From the NCBI RefSeq assembly GCF_048403405.1, contig NZ_CP183129.1: a stretch of 64,000 nt of DNA; one strand, 5' to 3'. A program made the translations under genes and the position numbers. Under the pieces are notes generated by a model that did no database searches, had not been told where the DNA came from, and worked only from the letters and a program-made list of their open reading frames with translations. Below, one piece after another: positions 16,157 through 46,294 of the stretch (position 1 is its first letter; every line of letters starts with the position of its first letter). The DNA is from Escherichia coli (GTDB lineage Bacteria > Pseudomonadota > Gammaproteobacteria > Enterobacterales > Enterobacteriaceae).

Positions 16157-17341
16157 ATGAAAAAAGTCATTTTATCTTTGGCTCTGGGCACGTTTGGTTT
16201 GGGGATGGCCGAATTTGGCATTATGGGCGTGCTCACGGAGCTGGCGCATAACGTAGGAATTTCAATTCCTGCTGCCGGGCATATGATCTCGTATTATGCG
16301 CTGGGGGTGGTGGTCGGTGCGCCAATCATCGCACTCTTTTCCAGCCGCTACTCACTCAAACATATCTTATTGTTTCTGGTGGCGTTGTGCGTCATTGGCA
16401 ACGCCATGTTCACGCTCTCTTCGTCTTACCTGATGCTCGCCATTGGTCGGCTGGTTTCCGGCTTTCCGCATGGTGCATTTTTTGGCGTCGGCGCGATCGT
16501 GTTATCGAAAATTATCAAACCCGGCAAAGTCACCGCCGCCGTGGCGGGGATGGTTTCCGGGATGACAGTCGCCAATTTGCTGGGCATTCCGCTGGGAACG
16601 TATTTAAGTCAGGAATTTAGCTGGCGTTACACCTTTTTATTGATCGCTGTTTTTAATATTGCGGTGATGGCATCGGTCTATTTTTGGGTGCCGGATATTC
16701 GCGACGAGGCGAAAGGGAAGCTACGCGAACAATTTCACTTTTTGCGCAGCCCGGCCCCGTGGTTAATTTTCGCCGCCACCATGTTTGGCAACGCAGGTGT
16801 GTTTGCCTGGTTCAGCTACGTAAAGCCATACATGATGTTTATTTCCGGTTTTTCGGAAACGGCGATGACTTTTATTATGATGTTAGTTGGGCTAGGGATG
16901 GTGCTGGGGAATGTGCTAAGTGGCCGGATTTCAGGACGTTATTCACCACTGCGCATTGCGGCAGTAACTGACTTTATTATTGTGCTGGCACTGCTGATGC
17001 TCTTTTTCTTCGGCGGCATGAAAACAACGTCGCTTATTTTTGCATTTTTTTGTTGCGCGGGATTATTTGCCCTTTCAGCACCACTGCAAATATTGTTACT
17101 GCAAAATGCCAAAGGCGGAGAGTTATTAGGTGCCGCAGGTGGGCAAATAGCGTTTAACCTCGGTAGCGCCGTCGGCGCATATTGCGGTGGTATGATGCTG
17201 ACGCTGGGGCTGGCATATAATTACGTGGCGCTGCCTGCCGCCCTGCTTTCGTTTGCTGCGATGTCGTCATTGCTGCTGTATGGTCGCTATAAGCGCCAGC
17301 AAGCGGCGGATAGTCCGGTGCTGGCGAAACCACTGGGGTAG
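16157..17341 (+). CDS. araJ: MFS transporter AraJ
   Basis: Matches AraJ MKKVILSLALGTFGLGMAEFGIMGVLTELA...; start placed at the ATG at 16157 (394 aa). Confidence 0.9.
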   Translation: MKKVILSLALGTFGLGMAEFGIMGVLTELAHNVGISIPAAGHMISYYALGVVVGAPIIALFSSRYSLKHILLFLVALCVIGNAMFTLSSSYLMLAIGRLVSGFPHGAFFGVGAIVLSKIIKPGKVTAAVAGMVSGMTVANLLGIPLGTYLSQEFSWRYTFLLIAVFNIAVMASVYFWVPDIRDEAKGKLREQFHFLRSPAPWLIFAATMFGNAGVFAWFSYVKPYMMFISGFSETAMTFIMMLVGLGMVLGNVLSGRISGRYSPLRIAAVTDFIIVLALLMLFFFGGMKTTSLIFAFFCCAGLFALSAPLQILLLQNAKGGELLGAAGGQIAFNLGSAVGAYCGGMMLTLGLAYNYVALPAALLSFAAMSSLLLYGRYKRQQAADSPVLAKPLG

Positions 17342-17368
17342 ATTGCAGTCACGGTGCACGTTGCTTAT

Positions 17369-17456
17369 TGCCGGATGCGGCGTGAACGCCTTATCGGCCT
17401 ACGGTTCCGGCACATTTTGCAGGCCTGATAAGATGCGGCAAGCGTCGCATCAGGCA
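17369..17456. repeat. REP/BIME element (two palindromic units) between the araJ and mak 3' ends
   Basis: gccggatgcggcgtgaacgccttatcggcctac and aggcctgataagatgcggcaagcgtcgcatcaggc are typical E. coli REP palindromic units at a convergent junction. Confidence 0.8.
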
Positions 17457-17480
17457 TGATACGCCAATTGCCTGGTTTTT

Positions 17481-18389
17481 TTACTCTTGTGGCCATAACC
17501 ATGCAGCGCCGCGTACGCCGCTCGAATCACCATGTTTCGCCTTGCGTACCGGCGTTTCACATTCTCCGCCGAAGACAAATTGTTTAATCAACTGCGGAAC
17601 CGTTTGATATAAACGGTCTACATTGCTCATTCCGCCGCCCAGGACAATCACATCCGGATCGAGAATATTCACGACATGTGCCAGCGATTTTGCCAGCCGC
17701 AGCTCGTAGCGACGCAATGCCAGTTCCGCTACCGGATCGCTTTCTTCTACCAGGCGGATAATTTCACTGCCTTTCAGCGCATGTCCGCTCAAACGACGAT
17801 AATCCGTCGCGAATCCCGTGCCCGAAATAAAGGTTTCAATACAACCTTGTTTACCGCAATAACAAGGGACTTCCTCGCGATAACGCAGTTCGTCTTCGTC
17901 CATCCACGGTAGCGGATTGTGTCCCCACTCACCTGCCGTGCCATTGCCGCCGATATGCGCCCGCCCATTGAATGCCACGCCCGCGCCGCATCCCGTGCCG
18001 ATAATCACGGCAAATACCGTCTGCGCTCCCGCTGCCGCACCATCTACTGCTTCTGAAACCGCCAGACAGTTGGCGTCATTTGCCAACCGTACTTCCCGCT
18101 GCAACCGCGCGCTTAAGTCTTTATCGAATGGCTGACCGTTGAGCCAGGTTGAATTGGCATTCTTCACCACACCGGTGTAGGGCGAAATCGAACCTGGAAT
18201 GCCCATACCTACCGTTCCGCGCTGCCCTGTCGCCTGCTCCGCCATATCAACCAACGTGGCGATCGTTTCAATAGTCTGCTGGTAATCATCACGCGGCGTG
18301 GGCAGACGATGGCGGTACAACTGCTCCCCTGCATCGCCCAGTGCAATCACTTCAGTTTTGGTGCCGCCTAAATCGATACCTATACGCAC
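17481..18389 (-). CDS. mak: Fructokinase / manno(fructo)kinase, ROK family
   Basis: ROK-family ORF ...[14 protein letters not shown]...; start assigned to the GTG (complement of 18387-18389) with an upstream GGAGAG, giving the 302-aa K-12 length. Confidence 0.88.
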
Positions 18390-18513
18390 GGTACTCTCCT
18401 TATTTTTTTCAATATCAATAGCGTAGAGACGGACAACCGGATTGGCAATGCAAGGCCGCCGACAATTCGTTATCATGCCCGCTAAATTTAACGACAAGGC
18501 CGTGGAAATTATC

Positions 18514-19425
18514 ATGCTGTGGTTCAAAAATTTAATGGTTTACCGTCTTAGCCGCGAGATTTCGCTGCGTGCAGAAGAGATGGAAAAACAGCTAGCCTCG
18601 ATGGCATTTACCCCATGCGGCAGCCAGGACATGGCGAAGATGGGCTGGGTTCCTCCGATGGGATCGCACAGCGATGCGTTAACGCACGTTGCCAATGGTC
18701 AAATTGTTATCTGCGCGCGCAAAGAAGAAAAAATCCTCCCGTCTCCGGTGATTAAACAGGCGCTGGAAGCGAAAATCTCCAAACTGGAAGCGGAACAGGC
18801 GCGTAAGCTGAAGAAAACCGAAAAAGATTCGCTGAAAGACGAAGTGCTGCATTCTCTGCTGCCGCGTGCTTTCAGCCGTTTTAGCCAGACAATGATGTGG
18901 ATCGACACGGTTAACGGTTTGATTATGGTGGACTGCGCCAGTGCCAAAAAAGCGGAAGATACGCTGGCACTGCTGCGTAAAAGCCTGGGGTCGTTACCGG
19001 TTGTACCATTGAGCATGGAAAACCCGATTGAACTGACGCTGACCGAATGGGTACGTTCCGGCAGCGCGGCACAGGGCTTCCAGCTGCTTGATGAAGCCGA
19101 GCTGAAATCGTTGCTGGAAGATGGCGGCGTGATCCGCGCGAAGAAACAAGATCTGACCAGCGAAGAGATCACCAACCACATTGAAGCCGGAAAAGTGGTG
19201 ACTAAACTGGCGCTCGACTGGCAGCAGCGCATTCAGTTTGTGATGTGCGACGATGGTTCGCTCAAGCGTCTGAAGTTCTGCGACGAGCTGCGCGATCAAA
19301 ACGAAGATATCGACCGTGAAGATTTCGCCCAGCGTTTTGATGCCGATTTCATCCTGATGACTGGTGAACTGGCAGCGTTAATTCAAAACCTGATTGAAGG
19401 ATTAGGTGGCGAAGCACAACGTTAA
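18514..19425 (+). CDS. rdgC: Recombination-associated protein RdgC
   Basis: Matches Rdg[35 protein letters not shown]...; start at the ATG at 18514 (303 aa). Confidence 0.94.
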
Positions 19426-41051: not shown

Positions 41052-42014
41052 TTATTGCACGAAGCGCGAGGTCACGTACTGGCTGTAATCGTTCGCTACA
41101 GCCGGGACTTTGCCCTGCTCTTTCAAAAACTGCGCGGTGTCGATGATCGCTTTGTTCACCGATCCGGTCAGTTCTGCCGTTTGCTGCTGCGGCGTCAGAT
41201 AGGTATTCCCCTTCACCAGCCCCGGAACGTCACCTTCAGGCACGCCGCTTAACCGCGCCAGTTTGCTGATGTTTTCAGGCTGTTTCAGCCACGCGTCTGG
41301 GTTAGCAATGTACGGTTGCTGAGCATCGATGGCGCTTTTAGCGAACGCTTTCACGACCTCAGGATGTTTCTCGGCAAAATCTTTGCGCACTACCCAGACA
41401 TCCAGCGTCGGCGCGCCCCACTGCCCGACCTGTTCAGAATCGGTCAGCACCTTGCCGTCTTTTTCCAGGGCGTTAACCGCCGGTGCCCAGACATAAGCAC
41501 CATCAATGTCTCCCCGTTGCCATGCGGCGATAATCGCGGGTGGCTGCAGGTTCACTATCTCCACTTGTCCGGGTTTTATACCCCAGTGTTTCAGCGCCGC
41601 CAGCAGGCTGTAGTGGGTGGTGGAGATAAACGGTACGGCGATGCGTTTGCCAATGAGATCTTCCGGTTTGCTGATAGTTTTCTTTACCACCAGCGCTTCG
41701 GAGTTACCCAGTTTTGACGCCAGTAAGAAGACTTCAATCGGCACCTGTTGGCTGGCTGCCACCGCTAATGGGCTGGAACCGAGGTTACCGATTTGGACAT
41801 CGCCTGAAGCCAGCGCCCGCACGATGCTGGCTCCGCTGTCAAACTTACGCCAGTCCACCGTCGCCCCGCTCTCTTTAGCAAAGGTGTTATCAGCCTGAGC
41901 CACTTTCGCCGGTTCAGCGGAGGTTTGATAGGCCACGGTGACGTTCACCGCCTGTGCCTGAAAAGCGATGAATGCCAGTGCGGCAAGAAGTGTGTTACGC
42001 GATGAAATTGCCAT
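41052..42014 (-). CDS. tauA: Taurine ABC transporter periplasmic binding protein
   Basis: Matches TauA MAISSRNTLLAALAFIAFQAQAVNVTVAYQTSAEP...; start at the internal ATG (complement of 42012-42014), 320 aa. Confidence 0.94.
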   Translation of the reverse strand: MAISSRNTLLAALAFIAFQAQAVNVTVAYQTSAEPAKVAQADNTFAKESGATVDWRKFDSGASIVRALASGDVQIGNLGSSPLAVAASQQVPIEVFLLASKLGNSEALVVKKTISKPEDLIGKRIAVPFISTTHYSLLAALKHWGIKPGQVEIVNLQPPAIIAAWQRGDIDGAYVWAPAVNALEKDGKVLTDSEQVGQWGAPTLDVWVVRKDFAEKHPEVVKAFAKSAIDAQQPYIANPDAWLKQPENISKLARLSGVPEGDVPGLVKGNTYLTPQQQTAELTGSVNKAIIDTAQFLKEQGKVPAVANDYSQYVTSRFVQ

Positions 42015-42622
42015 GATTGTCTGCTCCCCTGTCTTGTTATAGGAGCAGTATTCAGGAATAAAAACATTCATTAAAAGAATTAGTCGTTATCGCACAGATG
42101 ATTTTATTCTTAGCAAAAAAGCGGCAAAGGAAAGATTAAATATGCAATTACACCCACTCTGACAATTCAGTAAGTTACTGCACTTCATTTTTATTAATGC
42201 ATAAACAAGCAGAACATAATGTCTTTTATTTTATTAACAGCAATACATATAATGAAATCATTATATTCACATTGCATATATAACTGTATCATTCTCAATC
42301 AACCACATAATACATTCACATAATGTATATAATCCATATTTGTGCCTAGAACATATTTTTAATATGTAATTAATTGACAAACTAAATCACATCTAAATAC
42401 AATATATAAAACAAAATAACTATACAAACCAAACACACAAACACTTAACATATGAACTACATAAAAGATTACGCAGTCGTATCCCCGTACCTGAAAGCCC
42501 CTTATTTTTCAGCTATCAGTAATTTTTAACACTTAAAAATTAGCATCTGTCTGTGCCAGAGATTACGTCTCTGCGGGCATCGTTGTGCTTGTAGTATAAT
42601 AAATAAAATGGAGTGTCATTAA

Positions 42623-43294
42623 GTGGATAAGGTTTTAGATTCAGCCATCCTTTCTTCGGCAAATAAAAGAAAGGGTATCCTTGCTATTGGCGCACATCCT
42701 GACGATATAGAATTGGGCTGTGGCGCGTCGCTTGCTCGTCTTGCGCAAAAAGGAATTTATATCGCAGCCGTGGTGATGACTACCGGCAACTCTGGCACAG
42801 ATGGAATAATCGATCGCCATGAAGAATCGCGCAACGCCCTAAAGATATTAGGGTGCCACCAAACTATTCATCTTAATTTTGCTGACACCCGCGCGCATTT
42901 GCAGCTCAATGATATGATTTCCGCCCTGGAAGACATCATTAAAAATCAAATTCCTTCTGATGTTGAAATCATGCGGGTATATACCATGCATGATGCCGAC
43001 CGCCATCAGGATCATCTTGCTGTTTATCAAGCTTCAATGGTTGCCTGCCGAACTATTCCACAAATTCTCGGCTACGAAACCCCAAGCACCTGGCTTTCAT
43101 TTATGCCTCAGGTTTTTGAATCCGTTAAAGAAGAATATTTCACAGTCAAACTTGCTGCATTAAAAAAACATAAAAGCCAGGAACGACGCGATTATATGCG
43201 TCATGATCGCCTGCGTGCAGTTGCACAATTTCGCGGGCAACAGGTCAATAGCGATCTGGGTGAAGGCTTTGTAATTCATAAAATGATTCTTTGA
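42623..43294 (+). CDS. yaiS: PIG-L / LmbE-family deacetylase YaiS
   Basis: ORF with the LmbE-type motif AIGAHPDDIELG. The only in-frame start before that motif is the GTG at 42623 (GGAG about 9 nt upstream); start uncertain. Confidence 0.8.
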   Translation: MDKVLDSAILSSANKRKGILAIGAHPDDIELGCGASLARLAQKGIYIAAVVMTTGNSGTDGIIDRHEESRNALKILGCHQTIHLNFADTRAHLQLNDMISALEDIIKNQIPSDVEIMRVYTMHDADRHQDHLAVYQASMVACRTIPQILGYETPSTWLSFMPQVFESVKEEYFTVKLAALKKHKSQERRDYMRHDRLRAVAQFRGQQVNSDLGEGFVIHKMIL

Positions 43295-43303
43295 GCAAAT
43301 TGC

Positions 43304-44500
43304 ATGAAAACCTGGATATTTATCTGTATGTCCATAGCAATGTTGCTATGGTTTTTAAGTACGCTAAAACGTAAACCCAGTCAAAAGAAAGGCTGTATTG
43401 ACGCCATTATACCTGCTTATAACGAAGGCCCGTGTCTGGCACAGTCACTGGATAATCTGCTGCGTAATCCTTATTTTTGCCGGGTAATTTGCGTAAACGA
43501 CGGCTCCACGGACAATACCGAAGCGGTCATGGCGGAAGTCAAACGCAAATGGGGCGACCGCTTTGTTGCCGTCACGCAAAAAAATACCGGTAAAGGTGGT
43601 GCGCTGATGAATGGCCTCAATTACGCCACCTGCGACCAGGTTTTTTTAAGTGATGCCGACACCTATGTTCCGCCCGATCAAGACGGAATGGGCTATATGC
43701 TTGCAGAAATAGAGCGCGGTGCTGATGCCGTAGGCGGCATTCCCTCTACTGCGTTGAAAGGCGCGGGTCTGTTACCGCACATCCGCGCGACCGTAAAGTT
43801 GCCGATGATTGTTATGAAGCGCACGCTACAGCAGCTCCTGGGCGGCGCACCGTTTATTATCAGCGGTGCCTGCGGGATGTTCCGTACTGATGTATTGCGT
43901 AAGTTCGGTTTCTCTGATCGTACTAAAGTCGAAGACCTTGATCTCACCTGGACATTGGTGGCAAACGGCTATCGTATTCGGCAGGCGAATCGCTGCATCG
44001 TATACCCACAGGAATGCAACAGCCCGCGTGAGGAATGGCGTCGCTGGCGGCGTTGGATTGTGGGCTACGCGGTCTGTATGCGCCTGCATAAAAGGCTTTT
44101 ATTTAGCCGCTTCGGTATCTTCAGTATATTTCCTATGCTGTTGGTTGTGCTTTATGGCGTTGGGATTTATCTCACTACCTGGTTTAATGAATTCATCACC
44201 ACCGGGCCGCATGGTGTGGTGTTGGCAATGTTTCCGCTTATCTGGGTCGGCGTAGTTTGTGTTATTGGTGCTTTTAGCGCCTGGTTTCATCGTTGCTGGT
44301 TGTTGGTGCCTTTAGCACCGCTTTCCGTTGTGTATGTATTATTAGCTTATGCCATCTGGATTATTTATGGACTTATTGCCTTTTTTACTGGACGCGAACC
44401 TCAGCGCGACAAACCCACCCGCTATTCCGCACTGGTGGAAGCGTCAACCTCTTATTCCCAACCTTCTGTCACAGGAACTGAAAAACTTTCTGAAGCTTAA
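43304..44500 (+). CDS. yaiP: Family 2 glycosyltransferase YaiP with C-terminal membrane segments
   Basis: 398-aa ORF with GT-A motifs (VICVNDGSTDNT, FLSDADTY) followed by several hydrophobic helices. Confidence 0.9.
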   Translation: MKTWIFICMSIAMLLWFLSTLKRKPSQKKGCIDAIIPAYNEGPCLAQSLDNLLRNPYFCRVICVNDGSTDNTEAVMAEVKRKWGDRFVAVTQKNTGKGGALMNGLNYATCDQVFLSDADTYVPPDQDGMGYMLAEIERGADAVGGIPSTALKGAGLLPHIRATVKLPMIVMKRTLQQLLGGAPFIISGACGMFRTDVLRKFGFSDRTKVEDLDLTWTLVANGYRIRQANRCIVYPQECNSPREEWRRWRRWIVGYAVCMRLHKRLLFSRFGIFSIFPMLLVVLYGVGIYLTTWFNEFITTGPHGVVLAMFPLIWVGVVCVIGAFSAWFHRCWLLVPLAPLSVVYVLLAYAIWIIYGLIAFFTGREPQRDKPTRYSALVEASTSYSQPSVTGTEKLSEA

Positions 44501-45059
44501 TGTTAAAGAGAAAAATATTCAGATTGCAGACCAGGTAATTATTGATGAAACTGCAGGTGAAGTTGTTATCGGCGCGAATACCCGTATTTGTCACGGTGCC
44601 GTTATTCAGGGTCCGGTAGTGATTGGCGCAAACTGCCTGATAGGTAATTATGCGTTTATTCGTCCTGGCACAATAATCAGCAATGGCGTAAAAATTGGCT
44701 TCGCCACCGAAATTAAAAATGCGGTTATTGAAGCGGAAGCAACGATTGGTCCGCAATGCTTTATTGCCGACTCGGTAGTTGCAAACCAGGCATATTTGGG
44801 CGCACAAGTACGAACCAGTAATCATCGTCTGGATGAACAGCCCGTGTCTGTTCGAACTCCCGAGGGAATTATCGCTACCGGATGCGATAAATTAGGTTGT
44901 TATATCGGGCAGCGTTCACGCCTTGGCGTACAAGTTATTATTTTGCCTGGGCGAATTATTTCCCCGAACACGCAACTTGGCCCGCGCGTGATTGTAGAAC
45001 GTAATTTACCTACCGGAACTTATTCACTCCGACAAGAACTTATCCGTACAGGAGATTAA
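44349..45059 (+). CDS. yaiX: Hexapeptide-repeat (left-handed beta-helix) acyltransferase-like protein YaiX, uninterrupted; start uncertain
   Basis: Repetitive [LIV]-G-x-x-x-x hexads (VVIGANTRICHGAVIQGPVVIGANCLIGNYAFIRPGTIISNGVKIG...). The ORF begins 150 bp inside yaiP with no ATG/GTG right after the yaiP stop, so the true start may be internal or non-canonical. I recall K-12 has this gene disrupted by IS2; no IS here. Confidence 0.7.
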   Translation: MPSGLFMDLLPFLLDANLSATNPPAIPHWWKRQPLIPNLLSQELKNFLKLNVKEKNIQIADQVIIDETAGEVVIGANTRICHGAVIQGPVVIGANCLIGNYAFIRPGTIISNGVKIGFATEIKNAVIEAEATIGPQCFIADSVVANQAYLGAQVRTSNHRLDEQPVSVRTPEGIIATGCDKLGCYIGQRSRLGVQVIILPGRIISPNTQLGPRVIVERNLPTGTYSLRQELIRTGD

Positions 45060-45060
45060 A

Positions 45061-45834
45061 ATGATAAAACGGACGTTATTAGCGGCGGCCATTTTTAGCG
45101 CATTACCCGCTTATGCCGGGTTAACTTCCATTACCGCGGGCTACGATTTTACCGATTATTCTGGCGATCATGGCAACCGTAATTTAGCGTATGCTGAACT
45201 GGTGGCGAAAGTTGAAAACGCAACGCTGCTTTTTAATCTTTCCCAGGGGCGTCGTGATTATGAAACTGAACATTTCAATGCCACTCGCGGTCAGGGTGCG
45301 GTCTGGTATAAATGTAATAACTGGCTGACAACCCGAACGGGTATTGCCTTTGCGGATAATACGCCGGTCTTTGCCCGCCAGGATTTTCGTCAGGATATTA
45401 ACCTGGCACTGTTGCCAAAAACGCTTTTCACGACCGGTTATCGCTACACTAAATATTACGATGATGTCGAAGTCGATGCCTGGCAAGGCGGCGTATCACT
45501 CTATACTGGCCCGGTGATCTCCAGCTACCGCTATACCCATTATGACTCCAGCGATGCAGGTGGTAGTTACAGCAATATGATTTCCGTGCGTCTGAATGAC
45601 CCGCGCGGCACTGGTTATACGCAACTATGGCTAAGCCGCGGAACAGGCGCTTACACCTATGACTGGACGCCAGAAACACGCTACGGCAGCATGAAGAGCG
45701 TCAGTTTGCAACGTATTCAACCGCTGACTGAGCAACTTAATCTCGGGCTGACGGCAGGTAAAGTGTGGTACGACACCCCAACTGATGATTATAACGGTCT
45801 GCAATTTGCAGCCCATCTGACCTGGAAATTCTGA
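45061..45834 (+). CDS. yaiO: Outer-membrane beta-barrel protein YaiO
   Basis: 257-aa ORF with signal peptide MIKRTLLAAAIFSALPAYA and a C-terminal aromatic residue (...LTWKF); starts 1 bp after the yaiX stop. Confidence 0.92.
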   Translation: MIKRTLLAAAIFSALPAYAGLTSITAGYDFTDYSGDHGNRNLAYAELVAKVENATLLFNLSQGRRDYETEHFNATRGQGAVWYKCNNWLTTRTGIAFADNTPVFARQDFRQDINLALLPKTLFTTGYRYTKYYDDVEVDAWQGGVSLYTGPVISSYRYTHYDSSDAGGSYSNMISVRLNDPRGTGYTQLWLSRGTGAYTYDWTPETRYGSMKSVSLQRIQPLTEQLNLGLTAGKVWYDTPTDDYNGLQFAAHLTWKF

Positions 45835-45944
45835 TTGCTTCTGCCGCCCGCTATCCGGGGCGGCCTTCCCTGCCGATTAGCCCCCCCTTTCCTCTTTGTT
45901 TTCCGACCACATTCACCGGATAAATTTTATTCTCCAGTGTTATA

Positions 45945-45992
45945 TACTATAGGGGGGTATGTATTGACACATGGCATACCCCCCTATAGTAT
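45945..45992 (+). promoter_or_regulatory. frmRAB promoter/operator: long dyad with G6/C6 tracts (FrmR binding site)
   Basis: ATACTATAGGGGGG...CCCCCCTATAGTAT, a 14-bp perfect inverted repeat flanking TTGACA, about 30-70 bp upstream of the frmR ATG. Confidence 0.75.
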
Positions 45993-46018
45993 ATTGCGTG
46001 CAGATGATGAGGTGCGAA

Positions 46019-46294
46019 ATGCCCAGTACTCCGGAAGAGAAGAAAAAGGTCCTTACTCGAGTTCGTCGTATTCGGGGGCAGATTGATGCTCTGGAACGGT
46101 CGCTGGAGGGTGATGCCGAATGCCGTGCCATACTCCAACAGATCGCTGCCGTTCGGGGCGCGGCTAACGGGCTGATGGCAGAAGTGCTTGAAAGCCATAT
46201 CCGGGAAACGTTTGACCGAAATGACTGCTACAGCCGCGAAGTCAGCCAATCCGTTGACGACACTATTGAACTGGTTCGTGCCTATCTTAAATAG
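46019..46294 (+). CDS. frmR: Formaldehyde-responsive transcriptional repressor (CsoR/RcnR family)
   Basis: Matches Frm[52 protein letters not shown]...; start at the ATG at 46019 (91 aa). Confidence 0.94.

Follow-up and report, generated by a model that had tools for sequence, protein, structure and literature searches.

What do the four yai genes of Escherichia coli make, and what is the product for? The genes yaiS, yaiP, yaiX and yaiO lie intact at positions 42623–45834 of the stretch of E. coli DNA analysed here, a 64,000-nt part of contig NZ_CP183129.1 (assembly GCF_048403405.1) that we call the window. The standard laboratory strain K-12 has hidden this product from study, because its yaiX is interrupted by an insertion sequence (IS2) and its yaiS by an amber codon. 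Our analysis suggests, with a probability that we put at about even, that the cassette builds and exports a surface glycan derived from N-acetylglucosamine (GlcNAc), that this glycan acts as a cell–cell adhesin, and that the genes form a self-contained, horizontally mobile operon. An initial annotation, made from the sequence alone, had proposed a small pathway that makes or modifies, and then exports, a deacetylated or acylated surface glycan or glycolipid. This proposal is supported by a gene order kept in at least nine contexts, by ratios of non-synonymous to synonymous substitution (dN/dS) well below 1, by a synthase-like YaiP and by a channel-like YaiO.

The cassette consists of four open reading frames (ORFs) on the plus strand, as tightly packed as the initial annotation had described. 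The first gene, yaiS (42623–43294), starts with GTG, which is preceded by a GGAG at a distance of 9 nt, and encodes a full-length product of 223 aa. After a gap of 9 nt follows yaiP (43304–44500; 398 aa), whose end is overlapped by yaiX (44367–45059; the longest ORF spans 44349–45059 and encodes 236 aa). The yaiX stop codon TAA occupies 45057–45059 and yaiO (45061–45834; 257 aa) begins with an ATG at 45061, hence 1 nt after it. The ribosome-binding site of yaiO, a GGAG 7 nt 5' of the ATG, lies within the 3' end of yaiX. Where yaiX itself starts is uncertain. The candidates are ATG 44349, which gives the longest ORF; ATG 44367, the start in the MG1655 annotation, with 230 aa and a 134-nt overlap with yaiP; and CTG 44478, chosen by the PGAP pipeline in a strain that is 100% identical. 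A recent study notes the 236-aa form as common (PMC13058169, published in 2026). Distant yaiX orthologues begin with an ATG immediately 5' of a conserved Trp-Trp; E. coli yaiX encodes this Trp-Trp (residues 29–30 of the long ORF) without the preceding ATG.

The four genes travel together. Genes for a PIG-L deacetylase, a family 2 glycosyltransferase (GT2), a left-handed beta-helix (LbH) protein and a YaiO barrel occur in identical order in at least nine unrelated genomic contexts, the neighbours differ each time, and no other glycan genes lie nearby in any of the nine. The Citrobacter cassette adjoins hemB, the Acinetobacter cassette is placed after rpoBC, and the Salmonella cassette follows a gene for a PapB-type regulator and has ccdAB and an integrase gene close by. 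Another copy is found on a metagenome contig that bears MvaT. On a Stenotrophomonas metagenome contig the gene caller missed yaiO, and a tblastn search finds a full-length homologue of 36% identity directly after the LbH gene (comparison locus L010, 9754–10536); therefore all four genes are present at that locus too. Across these taxa YaiP is 62–70% identical, whereas YaiO goes down to about 35%, and to 24% in one genome, in which PilZ, GerE-type and H-NOX signalling proteins are encoded alongside. At 88–91% identity, the cassette is also carried by conjugative IncF and IncI plasmids from E. coli of livestock and humans. Examples are the IncF plasmid KS-NP019_P1 (cassette at L023 8953–12151), a Vir-type plasmid with cnf2 at 16251–19292, and the IncI plasmid pSA31IncI1 (L024 8976–12173). 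Of the 56 records in PLSDB that match, 38 are predicted to be conjugative. Compared with an island copy from E. coli, dN/dS is 0.06–0.24 for all four genes, and in more distant pairs non-synonymous differences stay far below the saturated synonymous ones. This substitution pattern indicates that all four genes are under purifying selection. Gene order, plasmid carriage and dN/dS together therefore point to a selected, mobile and self-sufficient cassette.

Several details of these copies are worth recording in their own right. The second chromosomal island, present in some E. coli (S22EC, L018 5793–8999), carries a diverged cassette beside IbrB-like and phosphoadenosine phosphosulfate (PAPS) reductase (IbrA-like) genes and IS66 remnants. 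Its yaiP, yaiX and yaiO are 94–97% identical to those of the window, and its yaiS is strongly divergent (proportion of non-synonymous differences, pN, 0.23). Upstream of the Salmonella copy (L006 7208–10777) lie this IbrA-like gene again, a gene for a YadA-anchor protein and the PapB-type regulator. One plasmid copy is located near fimbrial genes and IS66 copies. The megabase-sized "plasmid" records in PLSDB look mislabelled: four of 4.8–4.9 Mb are clearly chromosomes, and two others measure 1.2–1.3 Mb.

The first step of the pathway would fall to YaiP. The initial annotation had called it a membrane-anchored GT2, and this holds: the Pfam family Glycos_transf_2 is matched with 99 bits (cut-off 23), and one N-terminal and three C-terminal hydrophobic segments predict an inner-membrane protein with 1 + 3 transmembrane (TM) helices. 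The best NCBIfam match is PgaC_IcaA (TIGR03937; 100.8 bits, 8e-29, under the equivalog cut-off of 422.3), and the runner-up family reaches 43 bits. In BLASTP, YaiP and K-12 PgaC are 29% identical over 241 aa (E 8e-20). The YaiP motifs NDGSTD, D117-A-D119, E210-D211 and R247-W-R-R250-W251 are in register with those of PgaC and invariant across 32 orthologues. The GT-A motif set D, DxD, (T)ED, (Q/R)xxRW of processive GT2 synthases is present, with Arg in place of the Gln of QxxRW. The AlphaFold2 (AF2) model of YaiP (predicted local distance difference test score, pLDDT, 80) matches hyaluronan and cellulose synthases across nearly its full length. In sequence YaiP is nevertheless far from these enzymes. 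The class I hyaluronan synthases of Chlorella virus (CvHAS) and Xenopus (XlHAS1) and the cellulose synthase BcsA show 14–18% identity to YaiP and have six to eight TM helices instead of four; YaiP also differs by the Arg in its QxxRW motif and has no PilZ or cyclic di-GMP (c-di-GMP) module.

YaiS matches the PIG-L family PF02585 with 89.2 bits (cut-off 28.2; E 4e-25) over profile positions 1–128 of 129. The best of the named subfamilies is BshB1, whose profile is covered end to end (positions 4–223 of 226) with 80 bits, under the equivalog cut-off of 182.5; all BshB, MshB and Mca equivalog cut-offs are missed. Judged by these profiles, YaiS is a genuine member of PIG-L/LmbE and none of the named equivalogs. 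The AHPDDxE motif mentioned in the initial annotation reads AHPDDIE, and the longer GAHPDDIELG is kept in all full-length orthologues, down to 44% identity. D126-R-H128-Q-D-H131 (DRHQDH) is invariant among orthologues. We take the AHPDD and HxxH motifs to be zinc ligands and general base, as in MshB and BshB. The closest solved relatives are archaeal diacetylchitobiose deacetylases (5e-12), which act on the non-reducing GlcNAc of chitobiose. Neither a hydrophobic segment nor a signal peptide is predicted in YaiS, and the enzyme would be a cytoplasmic, metal-dependent de-N-acetylase.

The LmbE/PIG-L family serves glycosylphosphatidylinositol (GPI) anchor synthesis, the mycothiol and bacillithiol pathways (MshB/BshB), and teicoplanin, for which a deacetylase works with an N-acyltransferase. 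YaiS resembles these enzymes in family and in its intact motifs. A recurrent order of steps in the family is that GlcNAc is attached, deacetylated, and the free amine derivatised. Unlike the yai cassette, these pathways use partner glycosyltransferases of GT4 or GT1 and not a membrane GT2, and none has an outer-membrane barrel.

YaiX would be the enzyme that derivatises the amine, but here the evidence is divided. The initial annotation described a left-handed beta-helix acyltransferase. The beta-helix stands: the Hexapep family PF00132 is matched with 64.3 bits (cut-off 27), along with further LbH families of Pfam. The C-terminal half of archaeal GlmU matches YaiX at 9e-38, under the family cut-off, and the YaiX family profile matches the C-terminal domain of Sulfolobus ST0452 at 8e-36. 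The glucosamine-1-phosphate (GlcN-1-P) N-acetyltransferase domains of GlmU and ST0452 are thus its closest characterised relatives, and the YaiX positions aligned with GlmU R333, E349, K351 and N386 are invariant in the family. YaiX differs from both in having no nucleotidyltransferase domain and in the catalytic site. The residue that we take to be the general base, H363 in GlmU and H308 in ST0452 (in HLTY/HLSY), falls on a Gly-Pro-Gln that YaiX and six orthologues share without variation, with the proline in place of the histidine. YaiX has a distinct invariant histidine, H159, which adjoins a conserved Asn. Because the catalytic histidine of its closest relatives is an invariant proline in YaiX, the acyltransferase label is, on alignment evidence, not secure. 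No hydrophobic segment is predicted, and YaiX is likely to be soluble. According to PMC13058169, the activity of YaiX has yet to be tested. The same paper reports phenotypes on overexpression of a 71-aa YaiX. We set these aside as a clue to native function, since they were obtained with a plasmid-borne K-12 fragment and the intact form has a weaker effect.

At the far end of the pathway stands YaiO, and its initial description as an outer-membrane beta-barrel proved right. YaiO matches TIGR04390 with 182.8 bits (cut-off 32) and PF19413 with 90.3 bits (cut-off 23.9), and these profiles place it in a family of its own. We interpret the N-terminus, MIKRTLLAAAIFSALPAYA, as a Sec signal peptide (about 45061–45117) that ends in AYA. 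K-12 YaiO is reported to be in the outer membrane, in work cited in PMC4453288. The AF2 model (pLDDT 93) is a closed barrel of 14 strands and appears closest to the oligosaccharide channels CymA (for cyclodextrins) and OmpG. This likeness is mostly one of strand number, with 8–11% sequence identity; moreover sugars enter through CymA and OmpG, and for YaiO we propose the opposite direction. The YaiO sequence gave no match in the PDB. We also considered a link to the tetratricopeptide repeat (TPR) porins of the PgaA/BcsC type, which could not be demonstrated: a phmmer search of the full library and a profile search for distant YaiO relatives that are TPR-fused or informative in some other way turned up nothing but stand-alone barrels of about 260 aa.

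How could these four proteins work together? The gene content, order, intactness, conservation, folds, motifs and selection on which our model is built were all obtained here; the sugar donor, polymer or oligomer as product, the order of steps, catalysis by YaiX and export via YaiO are what we infer from them. YaiP, as a GT2 of the PgaC/hyaluronan synthase/NodC class, would use a UDP-N-acetylhexosamine (UDP-HexNAc), most likely UDP-GlcNAc, to assemble an oligo- or polysaccharide on the cytoplasmic side of the inner membrane and would hand this product on into the periplasm. YaiS, as a cytoplasmic zinc-type LmbE enzyme, would de-N-acetylate GlcNAc that is exposed to the cytoplasm, either a primer or the non-reducing terminal residue. 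YaiX, presumably a trimeric beta-helix related to GlcN-1-P N-acetyltransferase domains, would bind the resulting glucosamine (GlcN) and probably re-acylate it. YaiO, as a monomeric outer-membrane channel of 14 strands, would give the product access to the cell surface. Transcription would begin at a strong sigma-70 promoter within the A+T-rich leader, and silencing of this leader by H-NS would normally keep the system off. When made, the product would promote cell–cell adhesion.

We propose this last step because of a statement in EcoGene 3.0 (PMC3531124), according to which repair of yaiX in K-12 leads to vegetative clumping for which YaiP is required. Adhesion is also consistent with the regulators found near distant copies, since PapB, GerE-type regulators, PilZ and H-NOX are typical of adhesin and biofilm loci. 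The distant copies are flanked by GerE-type response regulators, a MASE1 histidine kinase, a PilZ protein and an H-NOX/hybrid kinase pair (L021 2511–3839 and 9867–14105; L008 11013–13183; L003 124–531), a set typical of biofilm control.

Several observations weigh against an exported adhesive glycan. The clumping statement appears in EcoGene as second-hand information from a meeting abstract, and concerns K-12, in which yaiS is truncated. Clumping after repair of yaiX could equally reflect relief of the polar effect of IS2 on yaiO. The PgaC_IcaA score of YaiP does not come up to the equivalog cut-off. Its TM helices number four, which may be too few to form a channel alone. Both modifying enzymes, YaiS and YaiX, are predicted to be cytoplasmic, while the pga, ica, bcs and alg systems modify their polymers outside the cytoplasm. 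The proline at the catalytic position of YaiX speaks against the re-acylation step. Finally, the assignment of the sugar to GlcNAc is itself an inference.

The closest known systems are pgaABCD of E. coli and icaADBC of staphylococci. Like the yai cassette, they are built around a membrane GT2 synthase, with YaiP closest to PgaC; they also combine a synthase with a de-N-acetylase and, in pga, an outer-membrane barrel, ica has an acyl-modifying enzyme as well, and the clumping reported for the yai cassette is likewise an adhesive phenotype. The differences are nonetheless substantial. No gene for a PgaD or IcaD partner accompanies yaiP, and YaiP scores under the PgaC_IcaA cut-off. YaiS has a cytoplasmic LmbE fold, whereas PgaB and IcaB are periplasmic or extracellular members of carbohydrate esterase family 4 (CE4). 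The yai cassette has an extra LbH protein, YaiX. Pga relies on a 16-strand porin with TPRs and a periplasmic CE4 deacetylase as partners, neither of which the yai cassette has. By its set of functions the cassette may hence work like a synthase-dependent system of the pga/ica type, while by family membership its proteins fall outside.

One could also argue that the product is a small chito-oligosaccharide similar to a Nod factor. YaiP would then correspond to NodC and make short GlcNAc oligomers, YaiS would correspond to NodB and deacetylate their non-reducing end, YaiX would correspond to NodA or NodL and add an acyl or acetyl group there, and the product would leave through YaiO as a signal or surface decoration and not as a matrix polymer. 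The analogy is attractive in several respects. In both systems a GT2 that synthesises oligo-GlcNAc, a de-N-acetylase and an enzyme that transfers acyl or acetyl groups would all work on the cytoplasmic side of the membrane. The 1 + 3 TM topology predicted here for YaiP and its size presumably equal those of NodC. NodL is also a hexapeptide-repeat protein. The solved relatives of YaiS deacetylate chitobiose at the non-reducing end, and YaiO is more like oligosaccharide-sized channels (CymA, OmpG) than like polymer porins. Homology, however, extends to YaiP alone, and weakly: the match to the NodC equivalog covers residues 24–125 only, with 29.6 bits against a cut-off of 550. NodB (CE4) and NodA have other folds and are not homologous to YaiS and YaiX. 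Nod factors leave by an ABC exporter without a dedicated outer-membrane barrel, and the yai cassette encodes no inner-membrane exporter of the NodIJ type. In addition, the reported clumping better suits a polymer. We therefore regard a Nod-like product as improbable.

A glycolipid deserves more attention, although we still consider it unlikely. In this case the acceptor of YaiP would be a membrane lipid (a polyprenyl phosphate, a diacylglycerol or a phospholipid), which would receive a single GlcNAc. YaiS would deacetylate this sugar on the cytoplasmic leaflet and YaiX would N-acylate the amine set free; the GlcN-lipid would then reach the outer membrane with YaiO as conduit or partner. This route would mirror, by analogy, the synthesis of GPI anchors (PIG-A, PIG-L, PIG-W), lipid A (LpxA, LpxC, LpxD) and lipoglycopeptides of the teicoplanin type. 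It would account for the predicted cytoplasmic location of YaiS and YaiX. To our knowledge, the LmbE/PIG-L enzymes characterised so far all work on the cytoplasmic side, and their substrate is a GlcNAc glycoside that has already been transferred to its acceptor. YaiP also passes the threshold of Pfam GT21, a ceramide-glucosyltransferase-like family (32.7 bits against 21.7), and its model resembles the minimal fold of PcManGT. The residues that YaiX retains at the positions of the sugar-1-phosphate-binding Arg, Glu and Lys of GlmU would suit a GlcN-1-P-lipid head group. Yet PgaC/IcaA is by a wide margin the curated family closest to YaiP, genes for a flippase or a periplasmic transferase are absent from all nine contexts, and an open barrel of 14 strands would be an odd partner for a lipid. 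The fold comparison is indecisive either way, since the PDB search gave no solved bacterial GT2/GT21 synthase of glycolipids.

Returning to the adhesive glycan, one can ask whether its synthesis would represent a new type of system. It is possible, though we say so with some doubt, that the cassette is a previously undescribed, minimal glycan system of Gammaproteobacteria. Such a system would combine a GT2 with four TM helices, an LmbE deacetylase and a GlmU-like beta-helix that lacks the histidine to make an N-deacetylated or re-acylated oligosaccharide, polymer or glycolipid that contains GlcN, which would leave through a dedicated 14-strand barrel without a periplasmic scaffold. It would amount to a portable, plasmid-borne adhesin module, a "Nod/PNAG hybrid" (PNAG, poly-N-acetylglucosamine).

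Is the intact cassette a peculiarity of the strain studied here? It is not. Comparison with K-12 confirms the statement in the initial annotation that K-12 yaiX is split by IS2; the window yaiX is uninterrupted, collinear with its orthologues and free of inactivating lesions. A second lesion had been missed. Codon 186 of yaiS is TAG (amber) in K-12 and CAG (Gln186) in the window (43178–43180) and in seven other E. coli loci. The alignment pairs window positions 42623–43294 with L002 2131–2802 and, for K-12, L020 5560–6117. The amber stop interrupts the H-x-S-Q motif. The 38 codons past it are still in frame in K-12, and the C-terminal 38 aa that the K-12 product lacks are conserved across orthologues, including those of Citrobacter, Salmonella and Acinetobacter. 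With IS2 in yaiX and the amber codon in yaiS, K-12 therefore has two lesions in the operon. In the seven non-K-12 native loci that we sampled, yaiS, yaiP and yaiO are open without exception, and yaiX is frameshifted in one (HS-02, L015 2486–3065). At least 80% of the locus is covered in 78% of complete E. coli genomes (4251 of 5426), a count that includes IS-interrupted copies such as that of K-12, as aligned pieces flanking insertions were joined. The locus is missing from O157:H7 and has been deleted by IS1 in C41(DE3). Hence, an intact module is the common state in E. coli, and K-12 is the exception. The genes have long been annotated and the intact state outside K-12 is already in the literature, so that the finding as first written is not new.

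Other strains carry IS1 and ISEc20 insertions, and the inactivating events in the species are independent and recurrent. In two further E. coli genomes (L016 and L017, both at 623–1294) yaiS is 90.9% identical to that of the window, and yaiP, yaiX and yaiO are 96.7–98.7% identical; the diverged yaiS allele suggests that recombination has made the 5' end of the operon a mosaic. PGAP calls yaiS an "incomplete pseudogene" in strain 4621, which is 100% identical, and in four other genomes. We reject this call as a probable annotation artefact, since all seven non-K-12 native loci keep an open yaiS of 223 codons. It seems tied to the placing of ykiC, a small antisense ORF of K-12; in the same five genomes PGAP annotates the YkiC ORF alongside the yaiS pseudogene (L001 3624–3986 and 4161–4280). 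In the window an antisense ORF of 39 codons, one residue different from K-12 YkiC, is open on the minus strand within the 3' end of yaiS (43160–43279).

If the genes are intact, are they expressed? The divergent spacer between tauA and yaiS (42015–42622) is 608 bp long, with a G+C content of 0.29–0.34 against 0.55–0.59 in the tau genes. It is probably regulatory and silenced by H-NS: for K-12, the spacer between yaiS and tauA is among the H-NS sites given in PMC3946193. The only strong promoter-like site that we found lies upstream of yaiS. It reads TTGACA-18-TACAAT (42374–42403, plus strand) and agrees with the sigma-70 consensus in 11 of 12 positions. Genomic SELEX (systematic evolution of ligands by exponential enrichment) in K-12 lists identical hexamers and spacing as a constitutive RpoD promoter of yaiS (PMC3946193). 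No ORF of 50 aa or more occurs in the spacer, which has only short A+T-rich ORFs, and a small leader regulator comparable to the PapB gene ahead of the Salmonella copy was therefore rejected. An Rfam scan of 41900–46100 for riboswitches and leader RNAs gave no match at E values up to 1. Three terminator-like matches all lie inside coding sequence and are below chance expectation (3 against a shuffle mean of 5.2). A 7-bp GC hairpin 3' of yaiO (45843–45864) was discarded as a terminator, since its folding does not beat that of shuffled sequence (z-score −0.92) and it has no U tract. Spacing, promoter position and the order kept in nine contexts make the four-gene arrangement look operon-like, and EcoGene 3.0 speaks of "the yaiX operon" (PMC3531124).

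The A+T-rich leader and the H-NS site also fit a less flattering view, namely that the cassette is a silent and decaying acquired island. The ORFs would still be open, H-NS would keep the operon off, and the genes would have no role in this strain and be heading for loss, as in K-12, BL21 and O157:H7. Repeated independent lesions agree with decay (IS2 and amber in K-12, the IS1 deletion in C41(DE3), IS1 and ISEc20 elsewhere, the HS-02 frameshift, absence from O157:H7), and so does the finding in PMC13058169, from yaiX overexpression work, of no Shine-Dalgarno sequence ahead of yaiX and little sign of native expression. We nevertheless consider this very improbable. Decay is difficult to reconcile with the low dN/dS in all four genes, with retention of the locus in more than three-quarters of complete E. 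coli genomes, with intact cassettes across genera and on plasmids, and with catalytic motifs of YaiP and YaiS that are all intact here.

If the cassette does make an adhesive amino-sugar glycan, E. coli would have a fourth cryptic exopolysaccharide in addition to cellulose, PNAG and the NfrB product. Such a glycan would bear on biofilm formation, aggregation, recognition by phages and the immune system, and antibiotic tolerance. The cassette is found in about four-fifths of E. coli genomes, in other genera and on conjugative plasmids, including the cnf2 virulence plasmid. Functional work will need a wild allele, or repair of both K-12 lesions, and relief of H-NS silencing.

To the left of the module in the window lies tauABC, on the minus strand; to its right follows frmR-frmA-frmB, of which frmB is annotated as fghA. 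To the right of yaiO, a perfect 19-bp inverted repeat (ATATACTATAGGGGGGTAT / ATACCCCCCTATAGTATAT) at 45942–45994 brackets a promoter-like site of frmR, TTGACA-17-TAGTAT. This repeat is presumably the operator bound by FrmR.

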